Positions 3,474 to 46,055 are shown, counted from the first letter of the stretch. The stretch is 64,000 nucleotides of DNA from an uncultured Candidatus Binatia bacterium (GCA_965220195.1 CBDCPK010000005.1:3029875-3093874); one strand, 5' to 3'. Numbers and translations: made by a program. The notes: generated from the sequence alone by a model not told the origin.

Positions 3474-3815
3474 ATGAGTGAAAGCAAAACTAAAGGGCTG
3501 GTGTCTGATTACCAGGAGACGATCGCCAAGATCGGCAGCCACGGACCGCGTCCGTTCGGTCTCGGGTTGACGCACGGTTCGATGTTTACGCTGGTCTACC
3601 GTCCTCCCAATCCGGACGACCAGGAGCCTCACGACCAGGACGAACTGTATATTCCCATGAACGGCAGCGGGACGCTCATCGTTGATGACGAACGCCACTC
3701 GTTCAAGACCGGCGATATGCTGTTTGTCCCGGCCCACGCCGAGCATCGCTTTGAAGACTGCACTGACGGTCTGATGCTGTGGGCGATTTTTTACGGACCA
3801 AAGGGCGGGGAGTAG
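3474..3815 (+). CDS. Cupin domain protein
   Basis: Two-His cupin motifs (GxHxH-like ... PAHAEHRFED). The start was moved to the internal ATG at 3474 because the longer ORF overlaps the upstream gene. Confidence 0.6.
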   Translation: MSESKTKGLVSDYQETIAKIGSHGPRPFGLGLTHGSMFTLVYRPPNPDDQEPHDQDELYIPMNGSGTLIVDDERHSFKTGDMLFVPAHAEHRFEDCTDGLMLWAIFYGPKGGE

Positions 3816-3990
3816 GGGAACCCACCCCGGCCCTTCGGGCCACCCCTCCGAGGAGGGGATAGAAAAATTTCCCTCTTGGGAGGGAAAGAGGAAACGTGTC
3901 AGCATCTGCCTAGCTGTTGAAGGACACGTTTCCTCTTTGTGCCGCGGTAGCGGCGGAGTGGGTTCCTCTTCGTATCACACGTCCAAGGAG
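3816..3990. repeat. Composite palindromic intergenic element (REP-like) made of a 43-bp GGAACCCACCCC unit, a tetraloop hairpin and a 15-bp-stem AACGTGTC hairpin
   Basis: The unit GGAACCCACCCCGGCCCTTCGGGCCACCCCTCCGAGGAGGGGA recurs at 8425-8467 and, inverted, at 34396-34438. A perfect 15-bp inverted repeat AAGAGGAAACGTGTC / GACACGTTTCCTCTT sits at 3886-3937. The right end GGAGTGGGTTCC is the inverse of the left end. Confidence 0.6.
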
Positions 3991-3998
3991 GGAATCTG

Positions 3999-4196
3999 GT
4001 GATACTGTCCTTCAGCATTCTGCTTCTGCTTTCGGCCTGTAATCTGAGCAACTCAGTCGAGTCCGCTCCATCGACCGCGTGCTCTCAAATCGGCGTGCAG
4101 TGTCAGCTTCCGGGCGGGCCGCTCGGCGTGTGCCAATCGGCCCCATGCTCTGCAGGCGAGACTCCGCCCTGCTTTGCCTGTACTCCGCAGCACTAA
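3999..4196 (+). CDS. Small cysteine-rich lipoprotein/secreted peptide (65 aa)
   Basis: GTG start 8 nt after an AAGGAGGG RBS. Signal peptide with lipobox LSAC. The mature 52-aa part has 7 more Cys and several Pro/Gly. Confidence 0.4.
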   Translation: MILSFSILLLLSACNLSNSVESAPSTACSQIGVQCQLPGGPLGVCQSAPCSAGETPPCFACTPQH

Positions 4197-4280
4197 CCCT
4201 TCCTTGCTTGCATTCGCCGGCATTATCCGGTGTGATGTGCGCCGCGATAATGCGAAGGGGTGAGTCAGGAGAGAGAACGT

Positions 4281-5633
4281 ATGGGTCGCTACGATTATGA
4301 TTTCTTTGTTTTAGGGGCCGGCTCCGGTGGCGTGCGGGCGAGCCGGATTGCGGCTTCGTATGGGGCCAAGACCGCGGTTGTTGAGGAACGCTATCTGGGC
4401 GGAACCTGCGTCAACGTGGGCTGCATTCCAAAGAAACTCCTGGTGTACGCTTCGGAGTTCCGGGACCATTTCGAGGATGCCGCCGGCTTTGGGTGGACGG
4501 TCGGAGAGCGGACGGTTGATTGGAAAAAGCTAATTGAGAATAAAGACAAAGAAATCAACAGGCTGAACGGCATTTATCGCAATCTGCTCGAAGGCGCGGG
4601 CGCGGAAATCATTGAAGGCACCGCCCGCCTGATTGACGACCACACCATAGAGGTGGACGGCAAGCAGTACACCTCAGAATATATTCTGGTTGCGACCGGA
4701 AGCTGGCCAACTTTTCCCCAAACTCCGGGCATTGAACATGCCATTACCTCAAATGAAGCTTTTTATCTGGATGCGTTGCCCAAACGCGTAATTATTGTGG
4801 GTGGCGGCTATATTGCGGTCGAGTTTGCGACCATTTTTCACGGTCTAGGGTCAGAGGTGACCGAACTCTATCGGGATGAGCTGTTTCTGCGTGGCTTTGA
4901 TACCGACGTCAGGCAAGTCCTGGCTGATGAAATACGCAAACGAGGAGTAGATTTGCGCTTTAACTCAGACGTGAGTGGTATTGAAAAAACACCGCACGGA
5001 ATCAGAGCCACGCTGAACGACAAGAGCGAGCTTGAGGCCGATATCATCATGTACGCCACCGGCCGCTTACCCAACTCAAAAGGGCTCGGCCTTGAAACAG
5101 CCGGCGTTGAGACGAACGAGATCGGTGCCGTGTGTGTGGATGTCTATTCGCAAACCAACATCCCCCATATCTATGCTGTCGGAGATGTCACCGACAGGCT
5201 CAACCTGACGCCCATGGCTATTGCCGAAGGCCACGCCGTGGCGGAAACCCTGTTCAATAATAACCCTACTCGACCGGACCATATGAATGTGGCAACGGCA
5301 GTCTTCAGCCATCCGAACATCGGTACGGTAGGTCTGACGGAAGAGGAGGCGCGCCAGGAATACGACGCGATAGATATCTATAAATCCTCGTTCCGGGCCT
5401 TGAAGCACACGCTGAGCGGGCGGGATGAGAAGACCTTTATGAAGATTATTGTTGACCCAAAATCAGACCGGGTGGTTGGCTGCCATATGACCGGCCCGGA
5501 GGCAGGGGAGATTATTCAGGGCCTGGCCGTCGCCATCAAATGCCAGGCCACCAAAGCGCAGTTCGATGCCACCATCGGCATCCATCCGACCTCAGCCGAA
5601 GAATTTGTTACCATGCGACAAAAGGCTGCCTGA
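4281..5633 (+). CDS. gor: Glutathione-disulfide reductase family flavoprotein (pyridine nucleotide-disulfide oxidoreductase)
   Basis: GGTCVNVGCIPKK redox-active disulfide motif, an FAD Rossmann GxGxxG at the N-terminus and a C-terminal dimerisation HPT motif. AGGAGAGAG RBS before the ATG at 4281. Confidence 0.75.
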   Translation: MGRYDYDFFVLGAGSGGVRASRIAASYGAKTAVVEERYLGGTCVNVGCIPKKLLVYASEFRDHFEDAAGFGWTVGERTVDWKKLIENKDKEINRLNGIYRNLLEGAGAEIIEGTARLIDDHTIEVDGKQYTSEYILVATGSWPTFPQTPGIEHAITSNEAFYLDALPKRVIIVGGGYIAVEFATIFHGLGSEVTELYRDELFLRGFDTDVRQVLADEIRKRGVDLRFNSDVSGIEKTPHGIRATLNDKSELEADIIMYATGRLPNSKGLGLETAGVETNEIGAVCVDVYSQTNIPHIYAVGDVTDRLNLTPMAIAEGHAVAETLFNNNPTRPDHMNVATAVFSHPNIGTVGLTEEEARQEYDAIDIYKSSFRALKHTLSGRDEKTFMKIIVDPKSDRVVGCHMTGPEAGEIIQGLAVAIKCQATKAQFDATIGIHPTSAEEFVTMRQKAA

Positions 5634-5751
5634 GTTGAGCAATCTTCGCCCCTTCGGCGAGCTCAGGGTCGGTTTGGCTCCATCTCTGCTGAAGAAGCAC
5701 AGCGCAAGAGATTAAGTCTCCGTAAGGAGGACGCATCTAAAAGGAGACTCC

Positions 5752-6684
5752 ATGGAATGGAATGATGGCTTACCTGATGTCAGTTCATGGCAACCCAGAA
5801 GCGATAGGCAAGAGAATCTGAGTACCGGCTTGATGGTTACCTGCCAAGCATCTCAAACCAGAATTATAAATGAGGCCGAGAACGAGAGGAAATTCAATAT
5901 CGACAACTACGATTCCGGCCCAGGTGTCGAGGACATCGTGCGCCAAGAGTTATCCAAGCTCATGCCTCAGAGGTACTGCGTCGATGCTGGGGTGATTAAT
6001 GACCAAACGGGTAAAACCGCTGGAGACTTTGATATAGTAGTCAGAGACCAGACATGGACCAATGTAGTTAAACTCAAGGCGACGTCTCAATCACGCCGCT
6101 CTCATTTTCCTTTCGAGGCAATATATGCAGCAATAGAAGTCAAACAAACATTGGGTTTCCAGCAACTCGATAAAGCCATGGAGAAGCTCGTTACACTTTC
6201 TCGCTTAGACCGCCCTCGGAATCCGTATGGTCACATAACGGAAAACCAGCACTTTCCGTCCTTAGATAGGGAGGGTGCTATATTAAATCCACTTCATACC
6301 ACCGTATTTGGGACAAGAATACAAGACGGAATCGAGTTTCACGACATTGCTCGTAGATTCGACCAAATCAACGCCTGTCTCAATCGAGACCAGATGGTCA
6401 CAATGCTGTGTATTCTTGACCAAGGAACAGCGTGGTACTCTGTTAGGAGTGGTGAACCGTACAACGCGACTTTTATGACAGACCGGCAAGAGCCTCTCAT
6501 CTTGCAGGTGAATTACCAAGAGCCACAAAATGCTTTCTATAGATTCTTTCAGCATCTATCAGGACATCTTGCCCGTTCAGTGCTCGGATTAGGTAGACTA
6601 AGTTCCGAATACGGTTCACCACCTCCACCAAGAGAAACCATAGATAATGAGAATGCCTTTTATAATCAGGAAACTCGGCGGTGA
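5752..6684 (+). CDS. PD-(D/E)xK nuclease-fold protein (NERD-like), hypothetical
   Basis: GDFDIVV ... AAIEVKQT resembles the D...ExK catalytic core. G+C is visibly lower than in flanking genes. Strong AAAGGAG RBS. Confidence 0.5.
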   Translation: MEWNDGLPDVSSWQPRSDRQENLSTGLMVTCQASQTRIINEAENERKFNIDNYDSGPGVEDIVRQELSKLMPQRYCVDAGVINDQTGKTAGDFDIVVRDQTWTNVVKLKATSQSRRSHFPFEAIYAAIEVKQTLGFQQLDKAMEKLVTLSRLDRPRNPYGHITENQHFPSLDREGAILNPLHTTVFGTRIQDGIEFHDIARRFDQINACLNRDQMVTMLCILDQGTAWYSVRSGEPYNATFMTDRQEPLILQVNYQEPQNAFYRFFQHLSGHLARSVLGLGRLSSEYGSPPPPRETIDNENAFYNQETRR

Positions 6685-6903
6685 GGCCCCACAACACTGA
6701 GGAAGATGAAGAACACGACCATGTATTGGGGTGGTTCGAAGCTCAAGGAGCAAGATACCAGACGCGGATAAATACCGTGCTGCGGGTGTTCAAGGACGCG
6801 TCAAGCTCGGGGCCAGATAATGCGATTTTCTTCGACCAAAAGTGGTAGAGTTAATAGACGCGAATCCAATCGGTCTCCAGTTGCCTGCTGATGAGGGTAG
6901 CTG

Positions 6904-7242
6904 ATGAAATTACCAAACGTGCGTCGGGCGCAGATCGAACGGGAAAAGATCATGGATTACCTGCTATCACCCGCCAATCCACGTAGCAGAGCCAAGGCAG
7001 ATTTTTTTCTGAGTTTCGGTTTCAGCAGAGATCACTGGGAAGAGTTCGCGAAGGCACTGAAAGCTCATGCCGCATCTTATGAGGTCGCCCGAGTTGTAGA
7101 GACCGCATACGGTCCACGCTATCATGTGGACGGCGCGCTGGAGACACCGGACGGGCGCAATCCGGTCGTAAGGACCGTCTGGCAAACCGACCAGGGAAGT
7201 GCATATCCCAGACTCATTACAGCGTACCCGCACAGGAGGTGA
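6904..7242 (+). CDS. DUF6883-like protein (putative toxin-antitoxin-like pair member)
   Basis: 112-aa ORF with RBS. The partner gene starts 4 nt after its stop. This sequence type is recalled as DUF6883. Confidence 0.45.
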   Translation: MKLPNVRRAQIEREKIMDYLLSPANPRSRAKADFFLSFGFSRDHWEEFAKALKAHAASYEVARVVETAYGPRYHVDGALETPDGRNPVVRTVWQTDQGSAYPRLITAYPHRR

Positions 7243-7245
7243 GAA

Positions 7246-7488
7246 GTGTTCAAGGAACATGAGCAGATCGTGCTTACCGCTGAGGTGTTTGGTGATGAGG
7301 GAGAAGCACTAAAACCGGGCGACGTGGGCACACTCATCCACATCCACCCCAATGAAGAAGCCGCCGTGGTGGAGTTCCTCTCGCTGGATGGCGGAACAGT
7401 GGCTCTCGCTACGGTGTTGCCGTCACAGATGCGTCCGGTGACGGGTGCTGACCTCACTCATGCCCGAACGGTTACGATGGCGGCCTAA
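7246..7488 (+). CDS. DUF4926-like small protein
   Basis: GTG start after a CAGGAGG RBS. 80 aa. Usual genetic partner of DUF6883. Confidence 0.45.
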   Translation: MFKEHEQIVLTAEVFGDEGEALKPGDVGTLIHIHPNEEAAVVEFLSLDGGTVALATVLPSQMRPVTGADLTHARTVTMAA

Positions 7489-7587
7489 GAACGAGTCGTG
7501 CGCGATCTCAAAGATTCCTCACGAGGTAATAACATGACTCGCACGCTTGAAGAGGCTTTCGAGAGGGCTTCCGATGGAAAGTATGGC

Positions 7588-7974
7588 TTACCAGAGACGG
7601 CGAACGCCGTACCGGTCGAAGAGTGATTCGTTCGAAATGAAAACGAGATTGTGCGTCAGTGCCTGGGCGATGAGCATCCGGTCGAAGGGGTCGCGATGGG
7701 GACCAGGTAAAGCTCCGGCGCGACTGGCGTCATCCACTGTGATGGCAAGCTCGCCGAAACCCTGGTTTGCTATAGCTTCGGCAACGTCGGCGGCGATCAG
7801 GTCAGCGCCCGGGAGTTTGCCGAGCCGATGCTTGGTGGTGATTTCCCAGGCCGACGCTGCGCTTATCAACACTTCATTTGCCTCATCCGCAATCGCGCGG
7901 TGTACTGTCTCAGATAGACGCCTGCTGTCTGTCATCCACCAAAGAAAGGTATGAGTGTCCAACAGTGCTCGCAC
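7588..7974 (-). CDS. vapC: Type II toxin VapC (PIN domain ribonuclease)
   Basis: LLDTHTFLWW N-terminal PIN signature with conserved acidic residues. Directly downstream of the antitoxin gene. Confidence 0.8.
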   Translation of the reverse strand: MRALLDTHTFLWWMTDSRRLSETVHRAIADEANEVLISAASAWEITTKHRLGKLPGADLIAADVAEAIANQGFGELAITVDDASRAGALPGPHRDPFDRMLIAQALTHNLVFISNESLFDRYGVRRLW

Positions 7975-7976
7975 TG

Positions 7977-8210
7977 CTATTCACCTTCCCATGCTTTCAA
8001 CTCTTCCTCCGGCAGTGGGTCGAAGAAACTGTCTGGAATGACAATCTTTCCCTTGAAAATATCGGGCTGTCGCTTACCGCGCTTTTGGACGCTCACCAGT
8101 CGCGCCACCGGTTTGCCGTTGCGGGCGATGATGACCTCTTGACCGTTCTCGACTTGCACGAGCAGACGAGACAACTGGGTCTTCGCTTGATGGACATTCA
8201 CCACTGGCAT
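7977..8210 (-). CDS. vapB: Phd/YefM-type antitoxin (VapB)
   Basis: 77 aa with KTQLSRLL...IIARNGKPVARLV Phd/YefM fold signature. Its stop is 3 nt before the vapC start. Confidence 0.75.
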   Translation of the reverse strand: MPVVNVHQAKTQLSRLLVQVENGQEVIIARNGKPVARLVSVQKRGKRQPDIFKGKIVIPDSFFDPLPEEELKAWEGE

Positions 8211-8424
8211 CGCTGCTCCCTTGATCTGTGATTAGCTAAGCATATGACTAATACGGATATTATGTCAAGCAGCCAACCTCGATCATAATCTTCGGGAGCG
8301 CTGACCAGAGTACACAGTTGCATCTGCGCGTTCCCAACTATGGAAAACTCTTCAAGGCGGTGATGGCGGCGCACATTCCCGATTGGAAAAAACACGCTGT
8401 CCGCCGGCGCCGCGCTGCAGCCTG

Positions 8425-8467
8425 AGGTGGGAGGAACCCACCCCGCCGCTACGCGGCACCCCTCCTG
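8425..8467. repeat. Second copy of the 43-bp GGAACCCACCCC REP-like unit
   Basis: GGAACCCACCCCGCCGCTACGCGGCACCCCTCCTGGGAGGGGA. Same ends and the same CCCCTCC/GGAGGGG palindrome as the copy at 3819-3861. Confidence 0.55.
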
Positions 8468-8502
8468 GGAGGGGATTTTCGGGGAAGAGAGGTTAGAGTA
8501 TT

Positions 8503-9195
8503 TTATGGCCAGATAATACGGATTTCCTCGACCAGCAGACCAACTGAATTTTTGAGGTCGATGAAGTTCGGCACATCACCTTGAATCTGCTCAATCTGCA
8601 TCTCGTCCGACTGCCAGCCCTTTTCAAAGGCGGCCATATCAGCCCAAGACAGCTCCGCGACACCGTCAAAAGCGGGTGTCTCGGCTTCGTAGATTTCGGG
8701 AGCGACGTGGCATTGGACATAGCGTCTGAGCCCCGGCGTTCTGGGGACAATGGGGGCGTGGACATTACGCCAATGATCCTGAAACTCGGCAACGCTGAGC
8801 CCCGGTTTTCGTTTGAGTAGAAAAAGGGCTTTGACTCCGGGCGCGTCTTTGGCCAACTCGGGCCCTGGGACGACAACATTTTCCCTGGTCATCAAAAACG
8901 ACGGACCCTCGTCGGCAATGAAATTCGGCTCATCCGGGTAGGCTCCATTCATATAATCGGGGTTGGTGCCCAGCCCCCGGCCGGTTTCCAGGTCGTCAAA
9001 CCAGATCTCGGCCAGACCTTCGTATGGGCTGGTCGGGACTCCGGGGATGTCATCTGGCATGCGATGGCTCTGCACATAACGTCTCAGCGCTTTGATGCGG
9101 ACGGCCAGGGGAGCATGAATATCACGCCAGTGGCGATGAAAATGCTCGTGACTGATATCCGGCTTCTTTGGTATCAGCGCAAATCCTTTGATCAT
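8503..9195 (-). CDS. EthD-domain protein (tandem EthD domains)
   Basis: Two repeats of a HFHRHWRDIHAP / FQDHWRNVHAP-type EthD motif. AGGAG RBS. Confidence 0.6.
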   Translation of the reverse strand: MIKGFALIPKKPDISHEHFHRHWRDIHAPLAVRIKALRRYVQSHRMPDDIPGVPTSPYEGLAEIWFDDLETGRGLGTNPDYMNGAYPDEPNFIADEGPSFLMTRENVVVPGPELAKDAPGVKALFLLKRKPGLSVAEFQDHWRNVHAPIVPRTPGLRRYVQCHVAPEIYEAETPAFDGVAELSWADMAAFEKGWQSDEMQIEQIQGDVPNFIDLKNSVGLLVEEIRIIWP

Positions 9196-29223: not shown

Positions 29224-29311
29224 GGAGGGATGGCCGAGCGGTTGAAGGCGCCGGTCTTGAAAATCGGTAGAGTCCAAAAGGCTCTCGTGGGTTCGAATCC
29301 CACTCCCTCCG
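29224..29311 (+). tRNA. tRNA-Ser (anticodon UGA)
   Basis: Acceptor stem GGAGGGA/TCCCTCC. D-arm GCCGAGCGGTTGAAGGC. Anticodon loop CTTGAAA. Long variable arm. T-arm GTGGGTTCGAATCCCAC. Discriminator G. Confidence 0.85.
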
Positions 29312-29413
29312 CGTCCCCTTGATTCCCTTTGTTCCCGCCCGTTTGCCCCAGCGCCCAACGATTGGTCAGGGAAGGGAATGTGATAATGTTAATATCAAGA
29401 GAGAGGAGTAGGG

Positions 29414-30462: not shown

Positions 30463-32871
30463 ATGCAGAAGACCCGTCTCAGCGAAAGCGATGTCCGCGC
30501 CAAGTATATTACGCCAGCCCTGCATCAGGCCGGCTGGGACGAGGCGCAGATTCGGCGCGAGGTCAGCTTCACCAAGGGCCGCATTATCGTGCGCGGCAAG
30601 CTGGTCAGCCGGGGTGAGGGCAAGCAGGCCGATTACGTCCTGCACTACAAGCCCAACCTCCCCATTGCGCTGATTGAAGCCAAGGACAACATGCACGCGG
30701 TTGGTGATGGCATGCAGCAGGCCCTGGGCTATGCCGAGACGCTGCATATCCCCTTTGTTTTTTCCTCCAACGGCGAGGGTTTTGTGTTCCACGACCGGAC
30801 CGGCCTGAGCCCTGAGCGGGAAACCACCCTCAGCCTGGACGCCTTTCCCGCGCCGGCCGAGCTGTGGGAGCGCTATCGTGCCTGGAAGGACCTGACACCA
30901 GAGGCCGAGTCCGTTGTTTCGCAGGACTATTTCAGCGACGGCGGCGGGAAGACCCCGCGCTACTATCAGGTCAACGCCATCAACGCCGCCATTGAGGCTA
31001 TTGCCAAGGGCCGCGAGCGCCTCCTGCTGGTCATGGCTACCGGAACGGGCAAGACCTATACCGCCTTTCAGATCATCTGGCGGTTGTGGAAGGCGGGCGG
31101 TAAAAAGCGCATTCTGTTTCTGGCCGACCGCAATGTGCTGATTGACCAGACGATGGTCAACGACTTCCGGCCTTTCGGTCCGGCCATGGCCAAGCTGTCG
31201 CCCAGGGCCGGGACCATCGAGCGCGCGGACGGTGCCTCCGAGGACCTGAGCGCCGCGATTGACCGCAGGCGGCGGATTGACACCTCGTATGAAATCTATC
31301 TCGGCCTGTACCAGGCCCTGACCGGGCCGGAGGACCGTCAGAAAGTCTTTCAACAGTTTTCGCCCGGCTTCTTCGACCTGATTGTGATTGACGAGTGCCA
31401 CCGCGGCAGCGCGGCCGAGGATTCGGCCTGGCGGGAAATCCTGGACTATTTCTCGTCCGCCACCCACATTGGTCTGACGGCCACGCCCAAGGAAACGGCC
31501 TATGTGTCCAACATCGAATACTTTGGCGAGCCGGTCTATACCTACTCGCTCAAACAGGGCATCCACGACGGATTTCTGGCCCCCTACAAAGTCATCAAGG
31601 TGCATATCGACCGCGACGTAGAGGGCTACCGACCCGAATCCGGCCAGTTGGACCGGGACGGGCACGAGGTCGAGGACCGCCTCTACAACACCAAGGATTT
31701 TGACCGCAATCTGGTATTGGACGAACGGACCAAGCTGGTGGCCCGCAAGATCACCCAATTCCTGAAGGAAAGCGGCGACCGCTTCCAGAAGACGATTGTC
31801 TTCTGCGTTGACCGGGAGCACGCGGCCCGGATGCGCCAGGCCCTCATCAACGAGAACGCCGCCCTGGTAGGCGAGAATCACCGCTATGTCATGCGGATCA
31901 CCGGCGGCGACACCGAGGGGCAGGCTCAACTGGACAACTTCATTGACCCGGAATCCCGATACCCCGTATTGGTCACCACTTCGCGTTTGCTCTCGACCGG
32001 GGTGGATATCCAGACCTGCCGGCTCATCGTGCTTGACCGGGAGGTGGGCTCCATGACCGAGTTCAAGCAGATTGTCGGTCGCGGCACCCGTGTGCACGAA
32101 GACACACGCAAGTTCTACTTTACGCTGATGGATTTTCGGGGCGCGACCGGTCATTTTGCCGACCCGGACTTTGACGGCGAGCCGGTGCAGATATACGAAC
32201 CCGGCGAGGACGATCCCATCACGCCGCCCGACGACGAAACAACGCCCCCGCAACCGGGCGAGGATGAGACGATTGTAGATGGTCTGCCACCCGATAGGCA
32301 GAAACCCCGCAAGATATATGTGGATAGTGTGAGCGCCGGCATCGTTGCCGAGCGGGTTGAGTATCTGGACCAATACGGCAAGCTGGTCACCGAGTCCTTA
32401 CGTGACTTTACCCGAAAGGCGCTGAAAAAGCGCTTTGCCAGCCTGGACGATTTTCTCCGGCGCTGGAAAGCGGCCGAACGCAAGCAGGCCATTCTTGAGG
32501 AATTGGCTGCCGAGGGGCTGGCGCTCGACACGATTGCCCAGGAACTCGGCAAGGACCTCGACCCTTTTGACCTGATTTGCCATGTAGCTTTTGACGCCAA
32601 GCCGCTGACCCGGCGCGAACGGGCTGAAAACGTCAAGAAGCGCGACGTGTTCGCCAAGTACGGAGACCGGGCCCGCACCGTGCTCGACGCATTACTCGCC
32701 AAGTATGCCGACGAGGGCGTGCTGAATCTGGACGATACCAACGTGCTGCGCATCCCACCCTTGAGCAACCTGGGCACCCCGCTGCAGCTTCTTAAGGCCT
32801 TTGGCGGCAAGGGAAGGTTCGTCCAGGCCGTTCACGATCTGCAAGCCGAGCTGTATAGGGAGAGCGCGTAA
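30463..32871 (+). CDS. hsdR: Type I restriction enzyme R subunit (HsdR)
   Basis: The N-terminal SESDTRAKYITPALHQAGW motif is classic for HsdR. Walker A GTGKT and DECH box (VIDECHRGS). Helicase C domain. Confidence 0.9.
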   Translation: MQKTRLSESDVRAKYITPALHQAGWDEAQIRREVSFTKGRIIVRGKLVSRGEGKQADYVLHYKPNLPIALIEAKDNMHAVGDGMQQALGYAETLHIPFVFSSNGEGFVFHDRTGLSPERETTLSLDAFPAPAELWERYRAWKDLTPEAESVVSQDYFSDGGGKTPRYYQVNAINAAIEAIAKGRERLLLVMATGTGKTYTAFQIIWRLWKAGGKKRILFLADRNVLIDQTMVNDFRPFGPAMAKLSPRAGTIERADGASEDLSAAIDRRRRIDTSYEIYLGLYQALTGPEDRQKVFQQFSPGFFDLIVIDECHRGSAAEDSAWREILDYFSSATHIGLTATPKETAYVSNIEYFGEPVYTYSLKQGIHDGFLAPYKVIKVHIDRDVEGYRPESGQLDRDGHEVEDRLYNTKDFDRNLVLDERTKLVARKITQFLKESGDRFQKTIVFCVDREHAARMRQALINENAALVGENHRYVMRITGGDTEGQAQLDNFIDPESRYPVLVTTSRLLSTGVDIQTCRLIVLDREVGSMTEFKQIVGRGTRVHEDTRKFYFTLMDFRGATGHFADPDFDGEPVQIYEPGEDDPITPPDDETTPPQPGEDETIVDGLPPDRQKPRKIYVDSVSAGIVAERVEYLDQYGKLVTESLRDFTRKALKKRFASLDDFLRRWKAAERKQAILEELAAEGLALDTIAQELGKDLDPFDLICHVAFDAKPLTRRERAENVKKRDVFAKYGDRARTVLDALLAKYADEGVLNLDDTNVLRIPPLSNLGTPLQLLKAFGGKGRFVQAVHDLQAELYRESA

Positions 32872-32874
32872 TTC

Positions 32875-34335
32875 ATGTCCGTTCGCACTCTGGTCAAATC
32901 CATTCAGGACATCATGCGCCAGGACACGGGCGTGGACGGTGACGCCCAGCGTATCAGTCAGTTGTGCTGGATGTTCTTTCTCAAGATCATTGACGACCAG
33001 GACCAGGAAATGGAGATGGAGAGGGAGGGGGAGGGCTACACGTCCCCTATACCCGAGCAGTTTCAATGGCGGACCTGGGCGGCCGACCCCGAGGGCATGA
33101 CCGGTGAGGAACTGTTGAACTTTATCAACGCCGACTTGTTCCCGTCGCTGAAGAACCTGGAAATTGACCAGGCAGGAGCCCGTAGCCGCGTTGTGCGCGA
33201 TGTTTTTGAGGATGCCTACAACTACATGAAGTCCGGCCAGTTGGTGCGTCAGGTGGTCAACAAGATCAACGATATTGACTTTAATGACCTGACCGAGCGT
33301 CAGCATTTCGGCGACATCTACGAGCAGATTCTCAACGACCTGCAATCCGCGGGCAATGCCGGCGAGTATTATACGCCCCGCGCCGTAACCGCCTTTATGG
33401 TTGATCGTATCGACCCCAAGCCGGACGAGACCGTATTCGACCCGGCCTGCGGGACCGGTGGCTTTTTGACCTGTGCACTGCGTCACATGCGTGAGCGTTA
33501 TGCCAAACGGCCCGAAGACGAACCGACCATACAGGCTGCCCTGCGTGCCGTTGAAAAGAAGCAGCTCCCCCACATGCTGTGCGTGACCAATATGCTGCTG
33601 CACGGCGTTGAAGACCCGAGCTTTGTGCGCCACGACAACACCCTGGCGCGGCCCTACATTAGCTGGGAGCAAAAGCACCGGGTGGACATTGTCCTGACCA
33701 ACCCGCCTTTTGGCGGCAGGGAGGAAGACGGTATTGAGGCCAACTTTCCGAAAGAGTTTCGGACCAAGGAGACCGCAGACCTGTTCCTGGCTCTTATTAT
33801 CCGCCTGCTGAAGCCGGGTGGGCGCGCCGCCGTGGTGCTGCCCGACGGCTCGCTGTTTGGCGAGGGCGTCAAAACGCGGCTCAAGGAGCACTTGATGGAG
33901 GAGTGCAACCTGCATACCATCGTGCGCCTGCCCAATTCCGTGTTCCGGCCGTATGCCTCTATCGGCACCAATCTGCTGTTCTTTGAGAAGGGCGCACCAA
34001 CCACTGACATCTGGTTCTACGAGCACCGCGTGCCCGCAGGTCAGAAAGCCTATTCCATGACCAGGCCGATCCGGCTGGACCATTTACAGCCCTGCATCGA
34101 CTGGTGGGGTGGGGCGGAGCGCACGGACCGCACGGAAACGGAGCGCGCCTGGAAGGTGACCGCCGAAGCCGTCAAGGCGCGCGGCTACAACCTGGACATC
34201 AAAAACCCGCATACCCAGGCAGACGACCTCGGCGACCCGCAAGAACTGCTGGCCAAGCTCAGCGCAACCGAGGCCGAGGTCACGGACTTGCGGGACCAGT
34301 TAAAGGCGATATTGGCCGAGGCGTTGCTGCGGTAA
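32875..34335 (+). CDS. hsdM: Type I restriction-modification N6-adenine DNA methyltransferase M subunit (HsdM)
   Basis: NPPFGG catalytic motif, SAM-binding FDPACGTGGFL, and the HsdM N-terminal domain. Starts 4 nt after the hsdR stop. Confidence 0.9.
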   Translation: MSVRTLVKSIQDIMRQDTGVDGDAQRISQLCWMFFLKIIDDQDQEMEMEREGEGYTSPIPEQFQWRTWAADPEGMTGEELLNFINADLFPSLKNLEIDQAGARSRVVRDVFEDAYNYMKSGQLVRQVVNKINDIDFNDLTERQHFGDIYEQILNDLQSAGNAGEYYTPRAVTAFMVDRIDPKPDETVFDPACGTGGFLTCALRHMRERYAKRPEDEPTIQAALRAVEKKQLPHMLCVTNMLLHGVEDPSFVRHDNTLARPYISWEQKHRVDIVLTNPPFGGREEDGIEANFPKEFRTKETADLFLALIIRLLKPGGRAAVVLPDGSLFGEGVKTRLKEHLMEECNLHTIVRLPNSVFRPYASIGTNLLFFEKGAPTTDIWFYEHRVPAGQKAYSMTRPIRLDHLQPCIDWWGGAERTDRTETERAWKVTAEAVKARGYNLDIKNPHTQADDLGDPQELLAKLSATEAEVTDLRDQLKAILAEALLR

Positions 34336-34395
34336 GGGCCGCTTGCAATCCACCGTTTCAGCCCCTCTCTCGCTCTCCTCTGTGGCCTTCATATC

Positions 34396-34456
34396 CCCTC
34401 CTTGGAGGGGTGGCCCGAAGGGCCGGGGTGGGTTCCTTTTCGCATCACACGTCCCG
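34396..34456. repeat. Third (inverted) copy of the 43-bp GGAACCCACCCC unit fused to the GTGGGTTCCTTTTCGCATCACACGTCC element
   Basis: CCCCTCCTTGGAGGGGTGGCCCGAAGGGCCGGGGTGGGTTCC is the reverse complement of 3819-3861. It is followed by a near copy of 3955-3985. Confidence 0.55.
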
Positions 34457-34593
34457 AGAGGAGAGAAGAGCACAGGCCTGTCCTTTACCACCGTATTGGA
34501 ACGCCTCCGGCTCATCCAACCTGCGGAACGAGTTTGATGCATACGGCTATTCCCCCTAAATTTGACTGATCCTAGTCATAAGGGGAATCACTC

Positions 34594-34890
34594 TTGAATA
34601 AATCCCGTCAAGCCAGGCAGACCGGCCCGGCACGGACTTCCGGCTGGAAGCTGGGAGAGGCCAAGGCAAAGTTCAGTGAACTCGTTCGCCTTGCCGCGTC
34701 CGGGCAGCCGCAACGGGTCACGGTTCACGGGAAGGACGCCGTGGTCATCGTCGCGGCAGACACATTCGAAGCCCTCCAGGCGCGGGAGCAATCGGGCAGC
34801 TTACACGAACTCCTGTCCCAATCTCCGCTGAGCCGTATCACGTTCGGTGGAGATAGTGTTCGGAGTCCGGTCCGTGAGTGTGCGTTGTGA
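34594..34890 (+). CDS. Phd/YefM-family antitoxin-like protein
   Basis: WKLGEAKAKFSELVR...VTVHGKDAVVIV matches the Phd/YefM N-terminal fold. TTG start after an AAGGGGAA RBS. Confidence 0.55.
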   Translation: MNKSRQARQTGPARTSGWKLGEAKAKFSELVRLAASGQPQRVTVHGKDAVVIVAADTFEALQAREQSGSLHELLSQSPLSRITFGGDSVRSPVRECAL

Positions 34891-34936
34891 ATAGCGCTTG
34901 CCTCTCTCGTCTTTCTATTTCACAATGGTCTCCATG

Positions 34937-35149
34937 AACACGGTCACTGTTCGCCTGGATGCAGAGCTTGCCCTTGAGTTGACAAAACTCGCGAAACGTA
35001 CGGGACGCCCCAAAAGCGAGTTGATTCGCCGTGCGTTACGCCGCCAACTGGCATTGGCTCGTTTTGAAGAACTGCGTCAGGGTGTCGCGCCGTTCGCAGA
35101 GGCCAGAGGGTGGCTTACGGATGAAGACGTTTTCCAGAACGTCTCATGA
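34937..35149 (+). CDS. Ribbon-helix-helix (CopG-like) antitoxin
   Basis: MNTVTVRLDAELALELTKLAKRTGRPKSELIRRAL is a typical RHH. Its stop overlaps the vapC start. Confidence 0.6.
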   Translation, partial: NTVTVRLDAELALELTKLAKRTGRPKSELIRRALRRQLALARFEELRQGVAPFAEARGWLTDEDVFQNVS

Positions 35150-35541
35150 GGGTATTCTTGGACACCAACGTGCTGGTTGCCGCCTACGCGACGCGCGGAC
35201 TTTGTGAGGATGTCTTTCGAGTCATATTAGCAGAACACGAACTCGTCGTGAGCGAGACCGTGCTCGCCGAATTTGAGCGCGTCCTGGTGCAGAAGCTCCG
35301 CTTGCCTCTTCCGCAAGTAAAAACACTGTCATCTTTCTTACGAAGACAGGCCGACATCGTTGACCCTGTCGCTCCCTCCGTGTGGCCGAAACGTGACCCG
35401 GACGACCGATGGGTCGTTGCGGCAGCGATAGAGGGAGGCGTTGATTTTCTTGTCACTGGTGATCGTGACCTGCTTGAAGTCGCTGCTGAAGTGCCCGTTT
35501 CCATCGTCTCGCCGCGAACGTTCTGGGAGCAACTTCGTTAG
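35146..35541 (+). CDS. vapC: VapC-family PIN-domain toxin
   Basis: MRVFLDTNVLVAA N-terminus, with conserved Asp/Glu positions later in the sequence. Confidence 0.8.
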   Translation: MRVFLDTNVLVAAYATRGLCEDVFRVILAEHELVVSETVLAEFERVLVQKLRLPLPQVKTLSSFLRRQADIVDPVAPSVWPKRDPDDRWVVAAAIEGGVDFLVTGDRDLLEVAAEVPVSIVSPRTFWEQLR

Positions 35542-35678
35542 TCCGCAGGGTGGCTGAGGAAAATGTCAGGTGAAGCTTCGCTCACTTGGCCTACGAGGCT
35601 GTTGGCCGGTTACACTCCTAAAGCATTGCCAAAAAGTAGCCTATACGCTACTGGAGGGTATGCCTGGGAGATGAGCAT

Positions 35679-35999
35679 ATGGCAAGGCGCACCATTCCGT
35701 ACGAAGACCTCCTCTATCAGGACCTCCAAGACCCCGAAGAGGCTGTGGCGTATCTGAACGCTGCCCTGGACGACGAATATGCACAGGGGGCAGAGGTCTT
35801 TCTCTTAGCCCTCCGTGATGTTGCCAAGGCTCGTGGTATGAAACAACTCGCTCAGGACACGCAACTCAGCCGGGAGAGCTTGTACCGAACATTGTCCCGT
35901 AAGGGGAACCCTCGCTTTTCCACGCTTGAGGCCGTGTTGAAGAGTCTTGGGCTGAAACTGAGTGTGACGGTGAAGCCCCCGGAAACAAAGGCTGCCTGA
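35679..35999 (+). CDS. HigA-family addiction-module antidote protein (orphan)
   Basis: DPEEAVAYLNAALDD...LLALRDVAKARGM...SRESLYRTLS matches the TIGR02684-like antidote family. No killer partner is detected upstream. Confidence 0.6.
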   Translation: MARRTIPYEDLLYQDLQDPEEAVAYLNAALDDEYAQGAEVFLLALRDVAKARGMKQLAQDTQLSRESLYRTLSRKGNPRFSTLEAVLKSLGLKLSVTVKPPETKAA

Positions 36000-36005
36000 C
36001 CTCCG

Positions 36006-36065
36006 CGTTACCTCTTCAATGAATGCCGAACACCTGCTCACCCACTTCGACCGCATAGCCGACGC
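36006..36065 (+). repeat. Direct repeat 1: duplicated 5' end of hsdS (about 50 bp plus GCCGACGC)
   Basis: CGTTACCTCTTCAATGAATGCCGAACACCTGCTCACCCACTTCGACCGC matches 36804-36852 with two mismatches. Confidence 0.7.
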
Positions 36066-36109
36066 GGCGCAGGTGACGCTTCGCTCGCCTAGGCTACGAG
36101 GCTGCCGAT

Positions 36110-36604
36110 ATGACTAAACCACGCGTGTATGTTGAGACCACGATTCCCAGCTTTTACCACGAAGAGCGCTCTGCTCCCGACATCGTAGCGCGCCGGGAAT
36201 GGACGCGGCGATGGTGGGACAGTGCGCCCGAGCACTACGAGCTTGTCACCAGCCCGGCCGTTCTGGACGAGCTGGCCCGCGGGATCCCGGAACGCAGTGA
36301 GAGACGCCTGTCGCTGGTGCGCAATCTCCCGCTCCTGCCCGTCGAATTGGCTATCACCGAGATCGTCCAAGGGTATATCAGGCACAAGCTGATGCCGGCG
36401 GATCCTGGTGGTGACGCCTTGCACTTGGCGCTCGCCTCCTACCACAAATGCGACTTTCTGGTAACGTGGAATTGTCGACATCTGGCAAACGCGAACAAGT
36501 TTGGCCATATCCGCCGTGTGAATACGATGCTCGGCCTTTTTATTCCGGCGCTCGTGACCCCGTTGGAACTCTTTGGAGGGAGCGATGAAACAGAATCAGA
36601 GTGA
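36110..36604 (+). CDS. PIN-like domain protein (putative VapC-like toxin)
   Basis: C-terminal DALHLALASYHKCDFLVTWNCRHL resembles the PIN C-terminal motif. The N-terminus (VYVETT) has Glu in the first acidic position. Confidence 0.5.
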   Translation: MTKPRVYVETTIPSFYHEERSAPDIVARREWTRRWWDSAPEHYELVTSPAVLDELARGIPERSERRLSLVRNLPLLPVELAITEIVQGYIRHKLMPADPGGDALHLALASYHKCDFLVTWNCRHLANANKFGHIRRVNTMLGLFIPALVTPLELFGGSDETESE

Positions 36605-36782
36605 CCCGGTGATTGATGAGATTCGAGAAGTGCGGCACCGCATCTCGGCGTGCTTTGGCCATGACCCCACACGGTTGGTAGCCTTCTACATGGAAATGCA
36701 GAAGCAGTACCAGGACCGGCTGATTGAGACCGCAAAGAGTTCTCAGGATAAGGATAACCAGCAATCTGACACGGCGCTTTAA
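36585..36782 (+). CDS. Small partner protein of the PIN-like gene (putative antitoxin), 65 aa
   Basis: Overlaps the PIN-like gene's 3' end by 20 nt. Charged helical protein. Confidence 0.4.
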   Translation: MKQNQSDPVIDEIREVRHRISACFGHDPTRLVAFYMEMQKQYQDRLIETAKSSQDKDNQQSDTAL

Positions 36783-36803
36783 CGCGCGAACAGCTCGCCG
36801 CAT

Positions 36804-36863
36804 CGTTACCCCTTCAATGAACGCCGAACACCTGCTCACCCACTTCGACCGCCTCGCCGACGC
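36804..36863 (+). repeat. Direct repeat 2: authentic 5' end of hsdS
   Basis: Partner of 36006-36065. Contains the hsdS start codon at 36817. Confidence 0.7.
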
Positions 36864-38532: not shown

Positions 38533-38601
38533 CGATATTCTTAACTTAGTTACATGCGAATTATCCGTCTACGAACGATAGCGGATTGTAGAAGGTGATG
38601 G

Positions 38602-39894
38602 ATGGAACTAGAGAAGATAAAAAGCGTGGATGAGTACCTACGCTCTTTACAATCTTTGCGCAATGCACATGCCTACAGGTATAGGGGACAATCTAACAGT
38701 GCATGGCCGGTATGCTCCTCATGGGCTCGCGCATTTAAAGGCCAAACACATTGGGACTGCCTTTCCTACCATTCAGACCTGATACGCGATTTTCCTTCCT
38801 TTGATTCTCTACCTGGATACGTAAGAGACCTTTCCAGAGAGAATCCGAGTCTTCTTACAGATTGGGATAAAGTAGCAATTATACAGCATTATGGAGGTGA
38901 GACTGGAAAAAAGACTATACTGACCGACTTTACTATAAGGCCGCTTATTGCCCTATGGTTCGCTTGTCAAGAAAAGGAGCACCGGAAAGAAGACGGAAAA
39001 GTCTTTGCTGTTTCAATTGATATTTTAGACGAGGTAGGGCTCCCGCATATCGATGATTATATTCGGGGCAACCATTCAGATTTGTACACTCTCGATAGAT
39101 CGTACCTATTTCCTACAAGTTTTCAGTACAATCCCAGAGGCAATACCAGAAGTCCTCACAAAAGCTATGTTTCTCGGATCGATAAGCAAGCATCATCCTT
39201 TGTCCTAGGGATTGAGAGGGTTGAGGAGGCTAAATGCAAATCAGTCATAATTGAGGCCAGCAGCAAGAAGCGAATACTCAATGAGTTGCGCTACTTTTTC
39301 TCCATATCAGAGAAAGCGCTCATGGATGATTGGTATGCTCTTGGCGAGGCTGTAGCGAACGGCAAGGAGGTGTCTACCGACGGTTTTACCGATGCTGAGT
39401 ACTATAACTTAGCGAAGGATATTAGTTTGTTACATAGACAACCGAGGGCTGGGCGTCCTTATTTTGAGGAAGCCCTCCAATACTGGCATTCTCAGAGAGA
39501 TCGTAGAGAGGCAATGGTTAAAGCCAGTTACTCTGATGACGCCGACCGAGAAAGAGTGCGTTGTTACATGAATCAAGCAGGAGCGCACTATTACATGAAT
39601 ACGGCTTGGACGATCTACTGTCTTGAGGATGCAGATGAGGGGGAGACACGGCGTGCTTGTGGTTATGCCCACAAGGGTTTTGATATGGCTAGCTATGATC
39701 CACAGCGTCCCGGATTCGCTGTAGTCTATGCCCTTTGTCTACTGAGATTGAATAAGGAAAAAGCCGCATACGATTTATGCAGGAGAGAACTCGATTTCTA
39801 CGAGCACTCTGCCCCCGCCTTCTGTACGGGCAAGAATTCTCCTTCTATTGATAAATTGAGAAGGATAGTGAACATTTATGAGGCTCACCATTAG
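38602..39894 (+). CDS. FRG-domain protein
   Basis: The N-terminal YRYRGQSNSAWPV motif is the FRG signature. Low G+C. GAAGGTGA RBS. Confidence 0.65.
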   Translation: MELEKIKSVDEYLRSLQSLRNAHAYRYRGQSNSAWPVCSSWARAFKGQTHWDCLSYHSDLIRDFPSFDSLPGYVRDLSRENPSLLTDWDKVAIIQHYGGETGKKTILTDFTIRPLIALWFACQEKEHRKEDGKVFAVSIDILDEVGLPHIDDYIRGNHSDLYTLDRSYLFPTSFQYNPRGNTRSPHKSYVSRIDKQASSFVLGIERVEEAKCKSVIIEASSKKRILNELRYFFSISEKALMDDWYALGEAVANGKEVSTDGFTDAEYYNLAKDISLLHRQPRAGRPYFEEALQYWHSQRDRREAMVKASYSDDADRERVRCYMNQAGAHYYMNTAWTIYCLEDADEGETRRACGYAHKGFDMASYDPQRPGFAVVYALCLLRLNKEKAAYDLCRRELDFYEHSAPAFCTGKNSPSIDKLRRIVNIYEAHH

Positions 39895-41292: not shown

Positions 41293-41334
41293 CGGCTCTC
41301 TTCCGCACCTCTCGAACTTGGCCGCTGACGCCGC

Positions 41335-45953: not shown

Positions 45954-46055
45954 CGCTCAGCGCGATTGCTCTTCACGAAAACGTCTTGTTTCCTCGACTG
46001 CCAGAGCCATCGCGTCGGGAGCGTTCAATCCAGACTGCGCTCGCGCCTTGACGAC
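45954..46055 (-). pseudogene. Truncated duplicate (3' about 100 bp) of the RHH antitoxin gene at 41335-41580
   Basis: About 90 percent identical to 41332-41433. No start codon and no intact ORF. Confidence 0.6.

Follow-up and report, generated by a model that had tools for sequence, protein, structure and literature searches.

A strain-variable islet in a Candidatus Binatia genome: probable remnant of a type I restriction-modification operon that retains a NucC-family endonuclease and toxin-antitoxin genes

Genes and features of the islet

The window, the whole stretch of DNA analysed here, comprises 64,000 nucleotides from an uncultured Candidatus Binatia bacterium (GCA_965220195.1 CBDCPK010000005.1:3029875-3093874). 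It contains a short segment of variable content between two convergent core genes, a gor-like gene, of the glutathione-reductase-like kind, and ethD. Five open reading frames (ORFs) lie within this segment (5752-6684, 6904-7242 and 7246-7488 on the plus strand, 7588-7974 and 7977-8210 on the minus strand), in conjunction with the further features listed below.

3817-3860, +: REP-like unit, left copy (repeat search)
5634-8502, no strand: strain-variable islet, flanked by the gor-like gene (4260-5633, +) and ethD (8503-9195, -)
5683-5751, +: degenerate sequence, possibly the 3' end of hsdS, then the nuclease ribosome-binding site (weak)
5752-6684, +: solitary NucC-family (DUF6602) PD-(D/E)xK endonuclease, 310 aa (Pfam, PADLOC, PDB search, Foldseek, hhalign)
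6681-6848, +: 55-codon ORF with the C-terminal motif only of a BrnA-type antitoxin (Pfam BrnA_antitoxin, 25.9 bits; cut-off 26.1)
6904-7242, +: DUF6883 protein, 112 aa, predicted BECR-fold RNase toxin (Pfam, 2e-35; structure model)
7246-7488, +: DUF4926 protein, 80 aa, putative antitoxin/immunity protein (Pfam, 4.6e-10)
7588-7974, -: VapC PIN-domain toxin, 128 aa (Pfam PIN, 55.5 bits, 1e-14)
7977-8210, -: Phd/YefM-family antitoxin, 77 aa (Pfam PhdYeFM_antitox, 45.3 bits, 7e-12; NCBIfam phd_fam, 35.8 bits)
8239-8268, -: sigma-70-like promoter upstream of phd-vapC, TTGACA-18-TATGCT (consensus match only)
8318-8401, +: 3'-terminal 28 codons of a YgjP-like gene, a deletion scar (tblastn)
8433-8476, +: REP-like 44-nt unit within the right-hand end of the islet (the window has three copies)
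34392-34436, -: REP-like unit, third copy (repeat search)

The limits of the variable segment (∼2.9 kb, 5634-8502) were defined by an empty site in one relative (L057, 76-79% nucleotide identity), where the stop codons of the gor-like gene and ethD lie ∼56 nt apart, together with alternative contents in others (L056, L043). The same site is occupied by katG in L056 (90-92% nucleotide identity), and holds TA genes only, without the nuclease gene, in L043, L055 and L059 (94-97% identity). Five conspecific contigs (L070-L074), 98.7-100% identical to the window, share its arrangement. Alignment against a sister genome places the breakpoints of the variable segment at 5634/6905 and 8280/8398. Judged from these alignments, the site between the gor-like gene and ethD is an insertion hotspot, and the empty site and alternative contents in relatives bear out the accessory islet proposed in the original prediction.

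The low GC content noted there for the 310-aa protein was also recovered: local GC is 0.46-0.50 over 5600-6800, a stretch that includes the gene (5752-6684), vs. 0.55-0.60 in the flanks. The nuclease gene is 86% identical in nucleotide sequence to a copy in an Acidobacteriota MAG, and the flanks of the islet match a MAG labelled Desulfurellaceae; the low GC and these differing matches suggest that the gene is of foreign origin. The gene positions first proposed were accurate, but several of the accompanying labels (NERD, REP-like elements as boundaries, a three-gene system) were not, as described below. Both the ygjP 3' fragment and the brnA-like ORF at 6681-6848 had been missed.

A solitary nuclease of the NucC family

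The product of 5752-6684 contains the sequence TAGDFDIVVRD...YAAIEVKQT and had been predicted to be a PD-(D/E)xK nuclease of the NERD type. The NERD label is ruled out: no match to NERD (PF08378) was obtained in a Pfam search at E<=0.1, and DUF6602 was the sole Pfam match (64.8 bits vs. a cut-off of 27). Every other approach likewise gives the NucC family, including the NucC effector model of PADLOC (2.5e-20), a PDB sequence search (NucC, 1e-10) and hhalign against NucC (probability 98.8, E 1e-16). Searched with Foldseek, an AF2 monomer model (pLDDT 81.7) gave NucC for all of its best 14 matches (E 6e-13 to 2e-11, TM 0.62-0.74).

In the alignment with Ec NucC, whose residue roles are described elsewhere (bioRxiv 10.1101/694703), R53, D73, Y81, E104 and K106 correspond to R74, D94, W102, E129 and K131, respectively, such that the ID-x30-EAK-type catalytic motif is present as FD94IVV...E129VK131. 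Among 42 close homologs, E129 is invariant, D94 and K131 are nearly so, and R74 and W102 are invariant or nearly invariant. Across 24 distant homologs, with identities as low as 27%, E129 and K131 never change, R74 and W102 are kept in at least 90%, and D94 varies. The predicted PD-(D/E)xK nuclease is supported by the conservation of the D/E/K residues in these alignments. The remainder of the NucC pocket is less well preserved. A gate-loop motif, NPYGHITENQH, is found at 157-167; within it, H161 is the counterpart of His136, a latch residue of NucC, but the correspondence is confined to the close clade and does not hold in wider relatives. NucC Tyr141 has no counterpart, and Thr226/Val227 fall outside the hhalign alignment. 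If there is a ligand, it may be something other than cyclic tri-AMP; alternatively, gating may have disappeared.

The gene is intact, has a dN/dS of 0.12-0.18 and is directly preceded by a ribosome-binding site (AAGGAG); no promoter-like site was found directly upstream. Its clade is small, with 56 representatives from several phyla at E<=1e-30 among 1.84 billion clusters, and a plasmid tblastn search with the nuclease returned only distant partial matches (<35% identity). As had been predicted, no methyltransferase gene lies beside it, and a stand-alone defence nuclease is the most likely reading of the product.

The same features could be those of an ordinary stand-alone restriction-type endonuclease (e.g. 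a modification-dependent one) that responds to no allosteric ligand. The ancestry of the NucC fold lies in type II restriction enzymes, and BbvCI, SgrAI and NgoMIV are among the weaker Foldseek matches; moreover, neither a cyclase nor a methyltransferase partner was found for the nuclease, and the pocket is only partly conserved. The gap in the Foldseek results is nonetheless large (E ∼1e-12 for NucC vs. >0.03 for restriction enzymes), and the pocket arginine and aromatic positions, along with the distinctive gate-loop motif, are kept down to 27% identity. Such conservation would be difficult to account for if the pocket had no function, and we regard a ligand-independent restriction-type enzyme as unlikely.

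Probable traces of a type I operon

The three closest homologs of the nuclease (81-89% amino acid identity; L001, L003, L004) are encoded in operons of the order hsdM-hsdS-nuclease-variable TA genes-hsdR-ygjP, and the hsdS stop overlaps the nuclease start in L001 and L003. At the window locus hsdM, hsdS and hsdR are absent, and only a fragment of ygjP, the gene that follows hsdR in related operons, is left: the translated 8318-8401 is 68-75% identical to YgjP residues 70-97 of L001, L003 and L004 (tblastn, E 2.5e-11 to 2.8e-13). Sister genomes (L043, L044) carry hsdR residues 5-64, i.e. the ∼60 first codons, at the equivalent site (E 1e-16). The left junction offers a weaker trace: when 5683-5751 is aligned to the 3' ends of hsdS in L001, L003 and L004, CTGCT..AAGC..GAGAT columns are shared, and clear homology begins ∼12 nt before the nuclease ATG. 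The VapBC pair of the window is also homologous to a pair inside the L001 operon, its VapC being 72% identical in amino acid sequence to the VapC encoded there.

Because a ygjP fragment is found in the window, an hsdR fragment in sister genomes and intact hsd operons around the homologs, the islet can be read as decayed type I R-M cargo. In our judgment, the islet is (with a probability of roughly 0.65) what erosion has left of a type I R-M operon gained by horizontal transfer, the survivors being three independent modules and the nuclease being NucC-like and ligand-gated. Between the window and L001, dS is 0.47 for the nuclease vs. ∼1.2-1.5 for VapBC; the modules may therefore have separate histories. 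An alternative course, in which the nuclease was inserted piecemeal beside a pre-existing TA/R-M relic, retains some residual probability.

Partners of the nuclease elsewhere

Across the loci of the nuclease family, no neighbor family is conserved. Neither the window nor 40 related loci yielded genes for CD-NTase, HORMA/TRIP13 or Cas10, and none of the top-25 Pfam families among 143 neighbor proteins is a cyclase. A search of the window and fetched loci for CD-NTase and HORMA, of limited sensitivity since it used one CD-NTase query, detected them only in the CBASS control (L054). The whole-window PADLOC summary is dominated by redundant type I R-M models, and provides no basis for excluding a cyclase.

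Given the operons of its closest relatives, the nuclease might instead have acted as a PrrC-style guard of type I R-M, held latent by the Hsd complex and freed when a phage anti-restriction protein inhibits that complex, the partner having been lost here. PrrC shows the same gene position and logic (PMC1484252), the three closest relatives place the nuclease gene between hsdS and hsdR (with the stop/start overlap in two), and type I R-M genes occur within 10 kb in 7/40 other family loci. The remaining 33, however, have no type I R-M genes nearby, and in the window the gene is intact and under purifying selection without flanking hsd genes. Position between hsdS and hsdR is, moreover, weak evidence alone, because the same variable operon region also carries unrelated TA genes. 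We consider a guard of this kind improbable.

Known and predicted toxin-antitoxin pairs and a probable gene remnant

The co-occurring DUF6883/DUF4926 pair named in the original prediction is well founded, as the two genes are adjacent and co-oriented in 14/14 loci, one of which (L053) has three tandem pairs. DUF4926 begins with a GTG start 3 nt past the DUF6883 stop, and an AGGAGG lies within the 3' end of the DUF6883 gene. The DUF6883 product models as a BECR fold, closest to CdiA-CT(Kp342), whose active site (K157, Y160, H170, R252, T255) and cofactors have been described (PMC9086364). In DUF6883, K15, Y19, K31 and T106 do not vary and R103 is nearly invariant; at the sequence level their spacing resembles that of the Kp342 set. 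PDB sequence searches with DUF6883 and DUF4926 yielded no significant match, and NCBIfam, PADLOC and PHROGs gave no match for either. On the strength of the model, DUF6883 is a probable BECR RNase toxin, and DUF4926 is probably its antitoxin, because the protein with which it is paired models as a BECR-fold RNase toxin; a probable BECR RNase toxin-antitoxin pair is a suitable annotation for the two. In six other loci (L047-L052) the pair lies between hsdM and hsdR-ygjP, and hsdR is visibly decaying there.

The Phd-VapC module was also predicted correctly, the pair being intact, with PIN and PhdYeFM matches and with vapC located 2 nt downstream of the antitoxin gene. The 128-codon vapC ORF is intact in all conspecific contigs; a truncated vapC in sister contigs was considered and rejected, as the 94-aa calls are gene-caller artefacts over an intact 128-codon ORF.

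The ORF at 6681-6848 covers only positions 45-66 of the 68 in the BrnA_antitoxin profile, is matched by PHROG antitoxin families only at their C-terminal ends, and has no brnT beside it. From its sequence, it is probably a gene remnant. The window and L003 have ∼45 nt past the nuclease stop in common.

The nuclease, DUF6883 and DUF4926 had further been proposed to form one uncharacterised defence system. The window and five conspecific contigs do carry them side by side in one orientation, but these contigs, at 98.7-100% identity, represent the same locus rather than independent occurrences. In none of 43 other DUF6602 loci (including L054, a canonical CBASS NucC locus) and none of 13 other DUF6883 loci does the nuclease accompany the DUF pair. 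A sister lineage of 94-97% identity retains DUF6883/DUF4926 without the nuclease, and within the window itself a 220-nt gap, together with the brnA remnant, lies between the nuclease and the pair. Co-occurrence being confined to orthologous copies of this locus, i.e. to one lineage, the three are therefore not a system, and the proposal is highly improbable.

The REP-like repeats are real (zero matches of the 39-44-nt unit are expected by chance), and the left element is composite as predicted, with nested inverted repeats over 3814-3969; they are dispersed, however, and do not bracket the islet. That REP-like elements delimit and move it as a mobile cassette is the least probable reading considered, since the two direct 44-nt copies (at 3817 and 8433, 4616 nt apart) are joined by a third 26 kb away, the core gor-like gene stands between the left copy and the variable segment, both copies fall in blocks shared with a nuclease-less sister genome, which has the left copy by pattern match and, in a block of 97% identity, the right position in a diverged form that the pattern no longer matches, and the presence/absence breakpoints (5634/6905, 8280/8398) differ from the repeat positions.

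Proposed mechanism and implications

Under the decayed-operon reading, the ancestral operon would have run hsdM-hsdS-[NucC-like nuclease]-[toxin-antitoxin cargo]-hsdR-ygjP, and from it hsdM, hsdS, hsdR and most of ygjP were presumably deleted. What would remain as cargo is the solitary NucC-family endonuclease, DUF6883/DUF4926 and Phd-VapC, plus the brnA fragment. By analogy with NucC, the nuclease may form trimers in which R74, W102 and the conserved ITEN gate loop make up an allosteric pocket, and may be inactive until its gate is closed by a small nucleotide-type ligand produced elsewhere in the cell. Pairs of trimers would then make hexamers that cut double-stranded DNA via D94/E129/K131, resulting in abortive infection. 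The DUF6883 toxin would cleave tRNA or other RNA once the labile DUF4926 antitoxin is lost, and VapC would act likewise upon loss of its antitoxin. Because such toxins act when the antitoxin is lost, the addictive modules could have outlived the restriction genes.

The matched empty, partial and full states among close relatives show the decay of a type I R-M island, and a pattern to that decay: restriction genes are lost, while addictive TA cargo and the embedded nuclease are kept. The locus neatly illustrates how a defence island decays and does not introduce a new type of system. It also draws attention to a rare NucC-like clade in which NucC pocket residues are retained and no adjacent cyclase was found, and which offers an inexpensive way to ask whether an effector of the NucC type can act when no signal generator is dedicated to it. 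One tentative proposal, doubtful as it stands, is that this ∼310-aa ‘ITEN gate-loop’ clade comprises cyclase-less effectors with a working pocket, triggered by a nucleotide supplied in trans (from unlinked CBASS, type III CRISPR or phage) or, in a PrrC-like manner when R-M-embedded, by failure of the type I complex. If true, the clade would represent a signal-eavesdropping or restriction-guarding DNase that has spread horizontally among MAGs of several phyla, some of them seemingly sponge-associated.

Comparison with known systems

The Phd-VapC pair corresponds to known VapBC modules with a Phd/YefM-type antitoxin in its PIN toxin 2 nt downstream and its promoter-like site, with no notable difference. 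DUF6883 shares (in its model) the BECR fold of the tRNase pair CdiA-CT(Kp342)/CdiI (PDB 6CP9), whose kin include BrnT, RelE and colicin D. It differs in being free-standing rather than the tip of a secreted CdiA, in its low identity (16-18%) and in that no equivalent of His170 was identified; DUF4926, compared with CdiI, has no detectable sequence similarity to any solved structure.

PrrC, an anticodon nuclease embedded in the type Ic R-M operon EcoprrI (PMC1484252), resembles the closest relatives of the window nuclease in that a putatively latent nuclease gene lies between hsdS and hsdR of a type I R-M operon. Unlike the window nuclease, PrrC is an ABC-ATPase-type RNase of unrelated fold; in addition, the R-M genes of the window are gone and most members of the nuclease family are unlinked to R-M.

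Damona, an anti-phage system of the Vibrio cholerae superintegron with homologs reported in Acinetobacter prophages, sets a precedent for defence by one DUF6602 gene (bioRxiv 10.1101/2024.07.02.601686). It resembles the window nuclease in being a DUF6602 protein that stands alone and in matching Cas PD-DExK and CBASS endonuclease profiles too, a likeness established at the level of the shared Pfam domain. DUF6602 proteins of Acinetobacter plasmids are 26-30% identical to the window nuclease over a third to just under half of its length.

The closest counterpart is NucC itself (PDB 6P7O, 6P7P, 6Q1H, 6UXF, 7ZGV), the cyclic tri-AMP-activated effector of type III CBASS and some type III CRISPR systems, which has the same fold and the same Pfam family (DUF6602). 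The two share the D...E-x-K motif, the phosphate-binding arginine (R53, here R74), the base-stacking aromatic (Y81, here W102) and a long loop at the gate-loop position. In contrast to NucC, the window nuclease had no cyclase gene near it in a search of limited sensitivity that covered the window and 40 related loci; it is only 15-19% identical, is ∼70 residues longer owing to N- and C-terminal extensions, and belongs to a clade with a gate-loop signature of its own, (NPYGH)ITEN.

Gene content and limits of the islet

The five ORFs of the original prediction are all present where it had placed them, and comparison with relatives bears out a variable islet, with its extent set at 5634-8502 rather than 5640-8500, between a gor-like gene (4260-5633, +) and ethD (8503-9195, -):

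5752-6684 (+), 310-aa nuclease
6681-6848, 55-codon ORF overlapping the nuclease stop codon
6904-7242 (+), DUF6883
7246-7488 (+), DUF4926
7588-7974 (-), VapC
7977-8210 (-), Phd
8318-8401 (+), ygjP fragment

GC content over the nuclease gene is 0.46-0.50, vs. 0.55-0.60 in the surroundings. The earlier labels for the small genes hold (Pfam DUF6883, 2.2e-35; DUF4926, 4.6e-10; PIN, 1.1e-14; Phd/YefM, 7.4e-12), and the toxin-antitoxin modules are of known kinds. The 55-codon ORF, whose matches to the BrnA antitoxin profile and to two phage antitoxin families are confined to the final ~22 positions of those profiles, is read as a probable gene remnant.

The islet had also been described as bracketed by REP-like elements. 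Such a repeat unit, 39-44 nt long, does exist, with three copies in the window where none is expected by chance (the left one composite, with nested inverted repeats), but the bracketing does not survive: one copy is 26 kb distant, next to another hsdM; the left copy precedes the conserved gor-like gene; and the two flanking copies fall in blocks shared with a sister genome that has no nuclease gene. The units are repeats scattered between genes and do not mark the ends of a cassette.

A NucC-family nuclease

The 310-aa protein contains the predicted core (TAGDFDIVVRD...YAAIEVKQT), but has no NERD match in Pfam, and that label is dropped; it belongs to DUF6602 (64.8 bits, cut-off 27). In PADLOC it matches a Cas-associated PD-DExK model (3e-22) and the CBASS NucC effector model (2.5e-20), and a PDB sequence search returned NucC proteins only, headed by Serratia NucC (1e-10). 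With an AlphaFold model built from 42 homologs (pLDDT 81.7, pTM 0.84), the top 14 Foldseek matches are NucC structures (E 6e-13 to 2e-11), with type II restriction enzymes ranking below them at E>0.03.

Profile-profile alignment with four NucC sequences (probability 98.8) maps Arg53, Asp73, Tyr81, Glu104, Lys106 and His136 of Ec NucC, whose functional roles were taken from bioRxiv 10.1101/694703, onto R74, D94, W102, E129, K131 and H161, respectively; NucC Thr226/Val227 have no alignable counterpart. Across 42 homologs (56-89% identity), R74, W102, E129, H161 and the entire GHITENQ stretch are invariant, and D94 and K131 nearly so, which upholds the D/E/K conservation on which the nuclease assignment had been made to depend. 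Among 24 relatives with identities down to 27%, E129 and K131 are invariant and R74, Y75 and W102 are each kept in at least 90%; the loop retains an (I/V)xEN core there, and H161 is lost. On these residues the catalytic site and part of a putative allosteric pocket are conserved, with a gate loop different from that of NucC. A less likely rival reading makes the protein an ungated restriction-type enzyme.

The nuclease gene keeps an intact reading frame behind a good Shine-Dalgarno sequence, and comparison with relatives gives a dN/dS of 0.12-0.18; no promoter-like site was found directly upstream of the gene.

Distribution and neighborhoods of the nuclease

The family is rare (among 1.84 billion clusters, the representatives of 513 match at E<=1e-3 and those of 56 at E<=1e-30), and its wide spread at ~55-65% identity, in Dehalococcoidia, other Chloroflexota, Acidobacteriota, Acidimicrobiia, Latescibacterota and Gammaproteobacteria MAGs, implies horizontal transfer. 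The three closest homologs (81-89% amino acid identity) all lie in the order hsdM-hsdS-nuclease-(variable small genes)-hsdR-ygjP; in L001 and L003 the stop codon of hsdS and the start codon of the nuclease gene overlap. Between nuclease and hsdR these loci have the following genes:

L001, Fic and PIN/Phd
L003, DUF433/DUF5615
L004, nucleotidyltransferase and AlbA_2

One nuclease clade is carried within type I restriction-modification (R-M) operons, at the site where the EcoprrI operon has prrC (PMC1484252). A less likely rival explanation makes the nuclease a guard of the type I restriction enzyme in the manner of PrrC, orphaned in the window. Type I R-M genes occur within 10 kb at 7 of 40 non-redundant nuclease loci and are absent from the other 33.

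All-against-all clustering identified no conserved neighbor of the family. The four nearest neighbors at 36 loci are heterogeneous (scattered AAA_21, DNA methylases, HNH, NotI, integrases) and include no cyclase, and a CD-NTase/HORMA query from the canonical CBASS locus L054 matched no other locus. With such mixed neighbors, and neither a conserved partner nor a cyclase, the nuclease gene is thus a self-contained unit, tending towards defense-type neighborhoods.

The DUF6883/DUF4926 pair as a separate module

The original prediction had allowed that the nuclease and the DUF pair form one system, an idea to be abandoned if the genes were not found together elsewhere. Wherever the three do occur together, the locus is an orthologous copy of this one: none of 43 other DUF6602 loci (L054 among them) and none of 13 further DUF6883 loci combines the nuclease with the DUF pair, and the sister lineage has the DUF pair without the nuclease. 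The nuclease and the pair are not one system.

The pairing of DUF6883 with DUF4926 is itself confirmed, the two being neighbors at each of the 14 recovered loci. At L047-L052 the pair has hsdM/AlbA_2 on one side and a decaying hsdR-ygjP on the other. L053 (4001-5969) has three DUF6883/DUF4926-like pairs in tandem, adjoining a GmrSD-type (type IV restriction) gene; the antitoxin-like genes of these pairs carry a ~17-residue insertion relative to the window DUF4926.

DUF6883, reportedly named within a BECR classification in a 2026 preprint, has a very confidently predicted structure (pLDDT 96.1), for which the only significant Foldseek matches are CdiA-CT/CdiI(Kp342) toxin chains (TM 0.70-0.75). 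Residues K15, Y19, K31 and T106 are invariant among homologs and R103 near-invariant, R103/T106 having the same R-x-x-T spacing as R252/T255 of CdiA-CT(Kp342). The catalytic residues of the Kp342 toxin, which cleaves tRNA with EF-Tu/Ts/GTP, are K157, Y160, H170, R252 and T255 (PMC9086364). DUF4926 starts 3 nt past the toxin stop, with AGGAGG within the 3' end of the toxin gene, and PDB sequence searches detected no relative among solved structures; from its position and obligate pairing with DUF6883 we infer that it is the antitoxin.

The sister-lineage VapC (L043 4685-5071, L044 3404-3790) reads HRAPFDR for HRDPFDR in the window gene, with Ala replacing the Asp of a conserved PIN motif; toxin inactivation may be under way there.

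A probable decayed type I R-M locus at an insertion hotspot

Window 8318-8401 encodes the final 28 residues of a YgjP-like protein (68-75% identity, E 2.5e-11 to 2.8e-13), whose gene follows hsdR in nuclease-bearing type I R-M operons, and the window VapBC is homologous to the pair within the L001 operon (72% at the nucleotide level). Sister-lineage contigs (L043, from a MAG labelled Desulfurellaceae, L044-46, L055 and L059) share 94-97% identity over the gor-like gene, the DUF6883-DUF4926-VapC-Phd block and ethD; they have an unrelated 226 nt in place of 5635-6904 (nuclease and brnA remnant) and, in place of 8281-8397, sequence that codes for the N-terminal ~60 residues of HsdR (55-65% identity, E down to 1e-16). 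These two distinct deletion scars of hsdR-ygjP imply that the common ancestor had both genes here, and the islet most likely arose by decay of a type I R-M locus. A faint likeness to the hsdS 3' end lies just ahead of the nuclease gene, and ~45 nt past its stop codon are common to the window and L003. Five further contigs from other samples keep the full arrangement, ungapped, at 98.7-100% identity.

A parallel to this history is provided by L047-L052, near-identical loci in which stages of hsdR decay (983-aa-class intact; split 506+184 aa; 201-, 215- and 113-aa fragments) lie beside an unchanged upstream DUF6883/DUF4926 pair.

In more distant relatives, the gor and ethD stop codons are ~56 nt apart (L057, 76-79% identity) or the site holds a 751-aa catalase-peroxidase (katG-like) gene (L056 7899-10154, 90-92% identity). 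The empty state, katG and the sister-lineage contents together define the gor/ethD site as a hotspot, one that, given katG, also takes non-defense genes. The sister genome shows another presence/absence difference within 2 kb of the islet: a 455-aa serpin gene, missing from the window, separates its cupin gene from the gor-like gene (L043 930-2335, corresponding to window ~4195-4199).

Other features of the window

A second type I R-M locus (30463-39894), apparently intact, has a different architecture:

29224-29312, tRNA-Ser gene just upstream
30463-32871, hsdR (EcoEI_R_C type)
32875-34335, hsdM
36110-36604, PIN gene, inserted with small ORFs ahead of hsdS
36724-38532, hsdS
38602-39894, FRG-domain gene matching PADLOC candidate PDC-S15

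Its hsdS and the sequence just upstream contain 73-83-nt repeats (82-88% identity, spacing about 800-870 nt), and the third REP-like copy (34392-34436, -), 98% complementary to that at 3817, lies directly past its hsdM stop. Direct repeats of 109 nt (41327-41435 and 45949-46057; 94% identity, 4622 nt apart) flank two AAA_16/STAND-type ATPase genes that contain TPR repeats (41862-44510, -; 44474-45670, -), an arrangement that could be another cassette-like unit; PADLOC matched neither gene. Whole-window PADLOC matched two proteins to 'mad2' (1e-65) and one to 'mad5' (MADS system); none of these matches was among ten individually tested ORFs between 34594 and 45667.

Proposed function and comparison with known systems

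Gene identities, folds, conserved residues, synteny and scars are directly supported in this analysis, and from them we infer a mechanism. The nuclease would work like NucC, as an oligomer that is gated allosterically and cuts dsDNA largely without sequence specificity, causing abortive infection; its activator is presumably encoded away from the nuclease gene. DUF6883 and VapC would be RNase toxins, restrained by DUF4926 and Phd, respectively, and both modules may have outlasted the restriction genes because they are addictive.

The nuclease shares the DUF6602/NucC family with the NucC of CBASS and CRISPR systems by both sequence and fold, but differs in lacking their operon context and in its only partly conserved pocket. 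It resembles Damona, a reported single-gene DUF6602 defense system (bioRxiv 10.1101/2024.07.02.601686), in its DUF6602 domain and single-gene nature; given that precedent, DUF6602 nucleases that stand alone are already a known kind.
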